NCBI RefSeq assembly: GCF_009931435.1
Contig: NZ_CP043414.1
DNA: 64,000 nucleotides
DNA from: Escherichia coli
GTDB lineage: Bacteria; Pseudomonadota; Gammaproteobacteria; Enterobacterales; Enterobacteriaceae
Direction: 5' to 3' (one strand)
Below, one piece after another: positions 6,120 through 6,322 of the stretch. A program made the translations under genes and the position numbers. Position 1 is the first letter of the stretch; every line of letters starts with the position of its first letter. Under the pieces are notes generated by a model, which ran no database searches, had not been told where the DNA came from, and saw nothing but the letters and a program-made list of their open reading frames with translations.

Positions 6120-6322
6120 TTGCCGGATGCGGCGTAAACGCCTTATCCGGCCTACAGTTCGATGCGATTCGTAGGTCAGATAAGATACGTCAGCATCGCA
6201 TCCGACAATAAGTGCCGGATGCGGCGTAAACGCCTTATCCGGCCTACGGTTCGATGCGATTCGTAGGTCGGATAAGATGCGTCAGCATCGCATCCGACAA
6301 TAAGTGCCGGATGCGACCTACA
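6120..6322. repeat. REP/BIME cluster with 92-bp tandem duplication
   Basis: Motif gtgccggatgcggcgtaaacgccttatccggcctac recurs at about 6120, 6212 and 6304 (third copy partial). Confidence 0.8.

Follow-up and report, generated by a model that had tools for sequence, protein, structure and literature searches.

A Two-Unit REP Array of 92-bp Period, Very Probably a BIME-2-Type Element, Between the Convergent ybhC and ybhJ Genes of Escherichia coli

BIME-2 arrays, with their tandem structure and their between-strain variation in copy number, have been described since the 1990s. Under the BIME classification of Gilson and Bachellier, as summarised in PMC3333891, BIME-2 elements consist of z2 and y REPs in tandem, the copies at a given locus being well conserved and their number varying between E. 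coli strains (Ton-Hoang et al., PMC3333891). The best-studied example is K-12 REP325 (yjdM-yjdN), which served as the reference for our family comparison and which acts as a partially Rho-dependent attenuator and mRNA stabiliser (preprint 10.64898/2026.03.23.713779). The same preprint found a REP in 207 of the 704 convergent spacers of E. coli and reported that such gene pairs are more highly expressed. Furthermore, gyrase cleavage is enriched in BIME-2 elements, mainly at Y REPs (PMC6379681), and in vitro the RAYT protein TnpA_REP recombines BIMEs, binding REPs with GTAG and a stem mismatch and cutting at iREP and linker sites (PMC3333891).

The array described here lies in a 64,000-nt stretch of E. 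coli DNA (contig NZ_CP043414.1 of assembly GCF_009931435.1), hereafter the window. Tandem Repeats Finder reported a single array at 6121–6315, with a period of 92, 2.1 copies, 97% matches, no indels and a score of 369, and the repeat search resolved it into two full units (6121–6212 and 6213–6304, 97% identical) followed by a third, partial copy (6305–6320). REP motifs were found in it. These results bear out the initial annotation, which had reported that a REP-containing unit is repeated head-to-tail in the ybhC-ybhJ spacer. Its figure of 2.2 copies compares with a measured 2.1–2.2, and its copy starts (6120, 6212 and 6304) were right except that each was one base early, the real ones being 6121, 6213 and 6305. 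Under a uniform model, the chance expectation for a 92-nt repeat with three or fewer mismatches in 64 kb is about 3e-40, and a chance origin was rejected. The motif GTAGGYCKGATAAG occurs four times in the array, against an expectation of 0.7 for the entire window. The array is wholly extragenic, within the 232-bp spacer that separates the stop codons of the convergent ybhC (plus) and ybhJ (minus) genes, whose names come from the RefSeq annotation of DNA that is 95–99.7% identical, in K-12 and thousands of other genomes. The sole open reading frame that touches the array (6254–6568, plus strand, 104 aa) starts inside unit 2 and runs antisense to the 3' end of ybhJ, and was taken as spurious. 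The features of the locus are as follows.

4822–6105, plus strand: ybhC coding sequence, a 427-aa open reading frame for an outer-membrane lipoprotein / putative acyl-CoA thioester hydrolase (as annotated by RefSeq in matching DNA), stop codon TAA at 6103–6105
6106–6120, plus strand: leader, 15 nt, from the ybhC stop to the first REP
6121–6155, minus strand: unit 1 Y-type REP, GTAG-first on the minus strand (the plus strand reads TGCCGG...GGCCTAC), 35/35 identical to the K-12 REP325 Y
6156–6170, no strand: unit 1 tail-to-tail linker AGTTCGATGCGATTC, 15 nt, bearing the G→A difference at offset 35
6171–6207, plus strand: unit 1 Z2-type REP, 37 nt, GTAG-first on the plus strand, degraded by stem G→A changes at 6178 and 6187
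6174–6244, minus strand: Rfam naRNA4 (RF02564) match covering a Y hairpin, a short linker and a Z2 hairpin, scoring 71.9 bits (gathering score 59.5)
6208–6212, no strand: head-to-head linker ATAAG, 5 nt
6213–6247, minus strand: unit 2 Y-type REP, same sequence as the unit 1 Y
6248–6262, no strand: unit 2 tail-to-tail linker GGTTCGATGCGATTC, 15 nt
6263–6299, plus strand: unit 2 Z2-type REP, intact, in which three pairs have changed in a compensatory way compared with the REP325 Z2
6300–6304, no strand: head-to-head linker ATAAG after unit 2, 5 nt
6305–6321, minus strand: collapsed REP remnant TGCCGGATGCGACCTAC, 17 nt, in which the 5' arm is joined directly to CTAC; every BIME-bearing allele has it
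6322–6337, plus strand: tail ATTCACATGGCGCTTT, running into a T-run that overlaps the ybhJ stop
6338–8599, minus strand: ybhJ coding sequence, an aconitase-family putative hydratase, stop codon TAA as the complement of 6338–6340, start placed from the 2262-nt K-12 annotation

Each unit thus holds a 35-nt Y REP, which reads TGCCGGATGCGGCGTAAACGCCTTATCCGGCCTAC on the plus strand and is GTAG-first on the minus strand, and a 37-nt Z2-type REP, which reads GTAGGTCGGATAAGATGCGTCAGCATCGCATCCGACA on the plus strand and is GTAG-first there, so that the orientations alternate -,+,-,+ along the array. An 11-nt direct repeat, TGCCGGATGCG, brackets each unit; in one-unit alleles its two copies are the beginning of the Y REP and that of the remnant, 92 nt apart. 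The two units differ at three positions only (offsets 35, 57 and 66; window positions 6156, 6178 and 6187), with A in unit 1 and G in unit 2 each time, which makes all three G→A in plus-strand terms. The REP folds show the two-base AA/GC mismatch of the stem, to which the Z2 of unit 1 adds two further mismatches. All four REPs carry the GTAG tetranucleotide and would qualify as candidate RAYT (TnpA_REP) substrates.

The only other clear REP site in the 64 kb is at 25339–25404, where a Z-type REP with the GCCTGATG outer stem (25339–25369, minus strand) stands beside a much weaker, oppositely oriented palindrome match (25382–25404). Other repeats of the window are of different kinds. At 30296–31451 (minus strand), seven tRNA matches are interleaved with four RtT RNA matches and include a 204-bp tandem repeat (30882–31262, 1.9 copies, 98%); by collinearity with K-12, we take this cluster to be probably lysT-valT. 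A nest of imperfect 15–78-bp tandem repeats, rich in GCTGC/CTTTT, occupies 34787–35250 and, judged by its position relative to K-12, presumably encodes the Ala/Lys-rich central domain of tolA on the opposite strand. Among the structured RNAs, a full-length Rfam match to the CpoB/ybgF intercistronic RNA thermometer (142 bits) was found at 32378–32516 (minus strand). On the ybhB side of ybhC, an exact phage lambda attB core, GCTTTTTTATACTAA, lies at 4761–4775 (minus strand) in the ybhB-ybhC spacer, ~1.35 kb from the array, and is apparently unoccupied. In strain 2020CK-00188, the closest relative found, the neighbour of ybhC is not ybhB but a tyrosine recombinase/integrase gene, suggesting that attB is occupied there.

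To which REP family does the array belong? Its Y and Z2 REPs alternate, the Y being the REP325 Y and the second palindrome having the length of a Z2; its units are repeated head-to-tail, with one, two, three or five copies among the relatives; its linkers are short (15 + 5 nt), with no long L linker holding an IHF site; it is extragenic, at the 3' ends of transcription units; and its unit number varies among strains while the units at the locus are well conserved. A BIME-1 was ruled out, as no IHF consensus WATCAANNNNTTR occurs within 6100–6340. Two details are less regular. At the base that usually tells Y from Z, the Z2-type REP carries G in place of the T of a Z (GTCGGATG versus GCCTGATG), its outer stem being Y-like and compensated, and the 5- and 15-nt linkers differ in length and sequence from the 11- and 17-nt linkers of REP325, the one array with which they were compared. 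A strict Bachellier scheme might, on account of the linkers and the Y-like outer stem, file the array as an 'atypical BIME'. We nevertheless hold with high confidence that it is a BIME-2-type element, built of two tandem 92-bp units of a Y and an inverted Z2 REP plus a remnant, with the hairpin-block function and the history of slippage or unequal exchange that we propose below. The initial annotation had framed the repeat as a duplication within a REP cluster; tandem repetition is, however, the defining architecture of BIME-2 (PMC3333891) and constitutes no anomaly.

The naRNA4 match raises the question of whether the main role of the array is to encode small nucleoid-associated RNAs of the naRNA4 kind, which with HU would bridge cruciforms and condense the chromosome, as in the original work on nucleoid compaction (PMC4550694). 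One Y-linker-Z2 stretch, 6174–6244 on the minus strand, does exceed the Rfam gathering score, and in the covariance-model alignment its Y half is perfect, with no broken pairs, and its linker is 6 nt shorter than the model. However, the Rfam model, built on one unit of REP325, is itself one BIME-2 unit, so any Y/Z2 pair scores, and the remaining registers of the array (42.7, 41.9 and 32.4 bits) all fall under gathering. Furthermore, there is no promoter-like site, including any sigma-70-like promoter, in 5900–6600, and the 2026 preprint did not reproduce nucleoid compaction, finding no measurable compaction by REP325 or the naRNAs and a local action on transcription instead (preprint 10.64898/2026.03.23.713779). 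We therefore consider a primary role as an RNA gene very unlikely.

Could the REP hairpins instead act on the two transcripts that converge on them? The ybhC and ybhJ transcripts would each meet strong REP hairpins (about -20 kcal/mol each) right after their stop codons. By analogy with described REPs, these hairpins would block 3'→5' exonucleases and protect the mRNA, and would give partial, largely Rho-dependent termination, replacing the intrinsic terminators of the REP-less alleles and of Citrobacter; gyrase may also cleave at the Y REPs. The array is thus likely a two-way 3'-end RNA hairpin block, combining mRNA protection with partial termination. Liang, Rudd and Deutscher (2015) reportedly found that REPs 15 nt or less from a stop codon cause ribosome stalling. 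At ybhC such an effect would be at best borderline because the first hairpin stem has its base at G6122, 16 nt downstream of the stop codon and just beyond that distance. In our literature search, no paper was found that names ybhC, ybhJ and REP together; neither gene is listed in the gyrase-site supplementary tables that were searched, and both appear in the supplements of preprint 10.64898/2026.03.23.713779 only in the expression table.

The predicted folds are consistent with this role. The entire spacer folds far better than shuffled sequences on both strands (z = -9.2 and -10.5). The Y REP hairpin has a folding energy of about -21 kcal/mol on either strand, and the Z2 hairpin of unit 2 has about -19.9 (plus) and -19.4 (minus) kcal/mol. 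A terminator scan found no canonical intrinsic terminator, with stem and T-run, in the window spacer, the sole weak match being inside the unit 1 Z2 on the minus strand and not above shuffles. The only terminator-like feature is a weak hairpin of -11.1 kcal/mol before TTTTT, formed by the remnant and tail (6302–6336). As the REP hairpins lack flanking T-runs and there is no canonical terminator, termination is expected to be partial or Rho-dependent. In the REP-less allele, on the other hand, clear intrinsic terminators serve both genes, one on each strand, and the ybhC terminator there has a descending arm and T-run that the right edge of the BIME alleles still resembles.

Furthermore, we observed that the orthologous ybhJ-ybhC spacer of K-12 MG1655 (NC_000913.3 805765–805997) holds a two-unit array of 233 bp. 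It shares with the window array, of 232 bp, its flanks, leader, remnant, tail and unit number. Its second unit differs, having a diverged Y REP with four substitutions and, in the adjacent linker, one substitution and a 1-nt insertion, with seven aligned differences from K-12 unit 1. Copy number at the locus, for which the initial annotation had suggested a comparison of strains, indeed differs, from zero to three units in E. coli and up to five in E. albertii. The E. coli alleles are as follows.

REP-less, 70 bp: for example, 98218
REP-less with an inserted IS200C, 780 bp: for example, M2021-10044802/2-E
One unit, 140 bp: GF4, UTI89, PCN033, MFDS1022581
Two units, 232/233 bp: the window, K-12
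Three units, 324 bp: one strain, N96

Of 5,426 complete E. coli genomes, 2,997 (~55%) have the second unit of K-12 type and 527 have the REP-less allele, and subtraction gives an estimate of ~35% for the one-unit allele. An exact match to the window-type unit 1 occurs in only 15, which come from humans, a dog, a goat and a pig. A systematic sample taken down the ranked matching genomes gave 19 two-unit, 16 one-unit and 4 REP-less alleles among 39 loci.

The REP-less spacer of 98218 (1757–1826 of our locus L004) contains two classical intrinsic terminators between ordinary E. coli coding flanks, and this strain and the one-unit strain PCN033 have an identical ybhC protein (WP_001091559.1). In M2021-10044802/2-E (1868–2325 of locus L005), an IS200C-family element with a frameshifted tnpA sits in the REP-less spacer beside the terminator hairpins. 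The REP-less allele may be a retained ancestral form or a replacement, given that all the other Escherichia species sampled carry REPs in the spacer.

The wider genus was surveyed in one scan of species-representative genomes, in which ~90 irrelevant Firmicutes aconitase-family loci also matched and were ignored. The results show that a BIME in the ybhC-ybhJ spacer is common to the Escherichia representatives recovered. E. albertii NBRC 107761 has five 93-bp units in a spacer of 513 bp (1466–1978 of locus L015), which diverge from each other by 3–13 differences, more than the E. coli units do; Escherichia sp. E1V33 has two units, E. whittamii and two divergent 'E. coli' representatives have one each, and Escherichia sp. 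MOD1-EC7003 has a single Y REP. Within Citrobacter, C. koseri and Citrobacter sp. MGH106, On2M and FP75 have short bidirectional intrinsic terminators with no REP, and C. youngae, C. gillenii and Citrobacter sp. Res13-Sevr-PEB04-36 have their own, different REP pair. We infer that the plain terminator is likely the older enterobacterial state.

How old is the duplication in the window? K-12 unit 2 has only three differences from unit 2 of E1V33, compared with seven from its own neighbour, K-12 unit 1; being nearer to the unit of another species, it indicates that the K-12-type two-unit array is old or was moved between species by recombination. The window pair has different affinities. Only 1 nt separates its unit 2 from the lone unit of MFDS1022581, a strain with the same leader haplotype, and the second units of three other strains, R32_14_1F, Z0117EC0005 and N96, are identical to that lone unit. 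The most economical reading of these sequences is that the window pair arose by a separate, relatively young re-duplication of a one-unit haplotype, with the three G→A changes occurring later in unit 1, and that N96 is a descendant of the re-duplicated haplotype that gained a third unit. The description of the duplication as 'recent' in the initial annotation is thus fair in relative terms, since the near-identical pair would be younger than the K-12-type array, but the allele is not private to its source strain, as its unit 1 occurs exactly in 15 genomes and the three substitutions are already fixed.

The same near-identity could have been produced by gene conversion, in which unit 2 of an ancient K-12-type two-unit array was homogenised by unit 1. 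Within a strain, the units have the same Z2 loop variant, GCGTCAGC for the window and GCGCAAGC for K-12, as would also be expected from concerted evolution. However, conversion would have had to erase all seven K-12 unit 2 differences, including the 1-nt indel, and the three second units that equal the MFDS1022581 single unit argue for descent from a one-unit allele. Because the flanking haplotype of the window (AAGCGATTAACTTTT ... TGCCGGATGCGACC, in leader and tail) matches that of one-unit MFDS1022581 and differs from that of K-12, gene conversion is the weaker alternative to re-duplication, and we judge it to be unlikely.

Short-read assemblers can miscount short tandem repeats, and an expansion introduced during assembly, or a slippage event private to the source strain, would also leave near-identical units. 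Since the exact unit 1 is present in 15 genomes, the window allele is neither private nor an artefact: 14 further complete genomes, assembled independently in different projects and from different hosts, have the same unit 1 and the same two-unit structure. Moreover, a three-unit relative exists, and K-12 has two units at the same place. An artefact or a private event is therefore extremely improbable.

In one-unit alleles, replication slippage between the 11-nt TGCCGGATGCG repeats, which lie 92 nt apart, would yield a gain or loss of exactly 92 bp. These repeats, with strong palindromes between them, form a classical slippage substrate. Once a unit is duplicated, 92 or more bp of homology would serve unequal exchange. 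Judging from the repeats, the copy number has probably changed by slippage or unequal exchange, and to this extent the mechanism named in the initial annotation is plausible, although the sequence does not separate it from amplification mediated by RAYT (TnpA_REP).

In such an amplification, single-stranded BIMEs would be cleaved and rejoined at CT sites in the iREP and linker, and neither passive slippage nor homologous exchange would be needed. Binding, cleavage and BIME recombination by the enzyme in vitro have been demonstrated, and explicit amplification models have been published (PMC3333891). In the array, three of the four REPs keep both GTAG and the AA/GC mismatch, and the remnant sequence GACC|TACA matches a weak cleavage site cited in PMC3333891. 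On the other hand, BIME amplification by RAYT in vivo has not been demonstrated in the literature, and the 11-nt and 92-nt direct repeats suffice for slippage and unequal exchange. Because the junctions of a tandem array cannot be located and leave no readable RAYT footprint, slippage, RAYT action and gene conversion are inseparable by sequence. We regard RAYT-mediated amplification as a minor possibility, and slippage or unequal exchange remains the probable mechanism.

The three changes in unit 1 do not affect the two strands equally. From unit 2 to unit 1, the Z2 hairpin falls from -19.9 to -7.0 kcal/mol in the ybhC-sense (plus-strand) RNA but only from -19.4 to -15.2 kcal/mol in the ybhJ-sense (minus-strand) RNA, where the fold is mostly kept because the two stem G→A changes become G.U pairs. 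This strand asymmetry could reflect a mutational bias or strand-specific selection. A more far-reaching reading is that the window allele records ongoing BIME-2 turnover under strand-specific selection at the RNA level, with a re-duplicated haplotype whose G→A changes wreck the ybhC-sense hairpin and are tolerated as G.U pairs in the ybhJ sense; we consider this decidedly doubtful. If strand-specific selection, rather than chance or mutational bias, were the true cause, unit number and hairpin integrity would tune ybhC and ybhJ separately, and the natural 0/1/2/3/5-unit series would be a ready-made test system for REP dosage.

As a feature, the array is ordinary and already known, given the two-unit array at the same K-12 locus and given that a variable copy number is textbook knowledge for this family. 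Mildly new are the rare, younger re-duplicated allele, the strand-asymmetric effect of its three changes on the hairpins and the clean natural series of 0–5 units. The allelic series (REP-less with terminators, single Y, and one, two, three and five units) could be used to measure the effect of REP dosage on termination and mRNA stability, and also the rates of BIME expansion and contraction and their recA and yafM requirements.

Compared with the described systems, the array has the main properties of BIME-2 elements, namely, alternating opposed Y and Z2 REPs, short linkers, head-to-tail pairs, a position at gene 3' ends, the lack of an IHF-binding L linker, near-identical units and a polymorphic unit number, but it differs in having only two units and in the Y-like, compensated outer stem of its Z2-type REP. 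With REP325 it shares the Y sequence (35/35), the length (37 nt) and fold of the Z2, and the tandem units. On the other hand, K-12 REP325 has a period of 100 with 5.8 copies at 96%, compared with a period of 92 here, and six units compared with two; the Z2 sequences are separated by three compensatory stem-pair changes and by loop bases; and REP325 sits inside an operon between the co-directional yjdM and yjdN genes, whereas the window array sits between convergent genes. Finally, the bidirectional intrinsic terminators of REP-less E. coli and several Citrobacter occupy exactly the same spacer position and presumably do the same job, but they do so with a stem and T-run, whereas the REP hairpins of the window stand without flanking T-runs.
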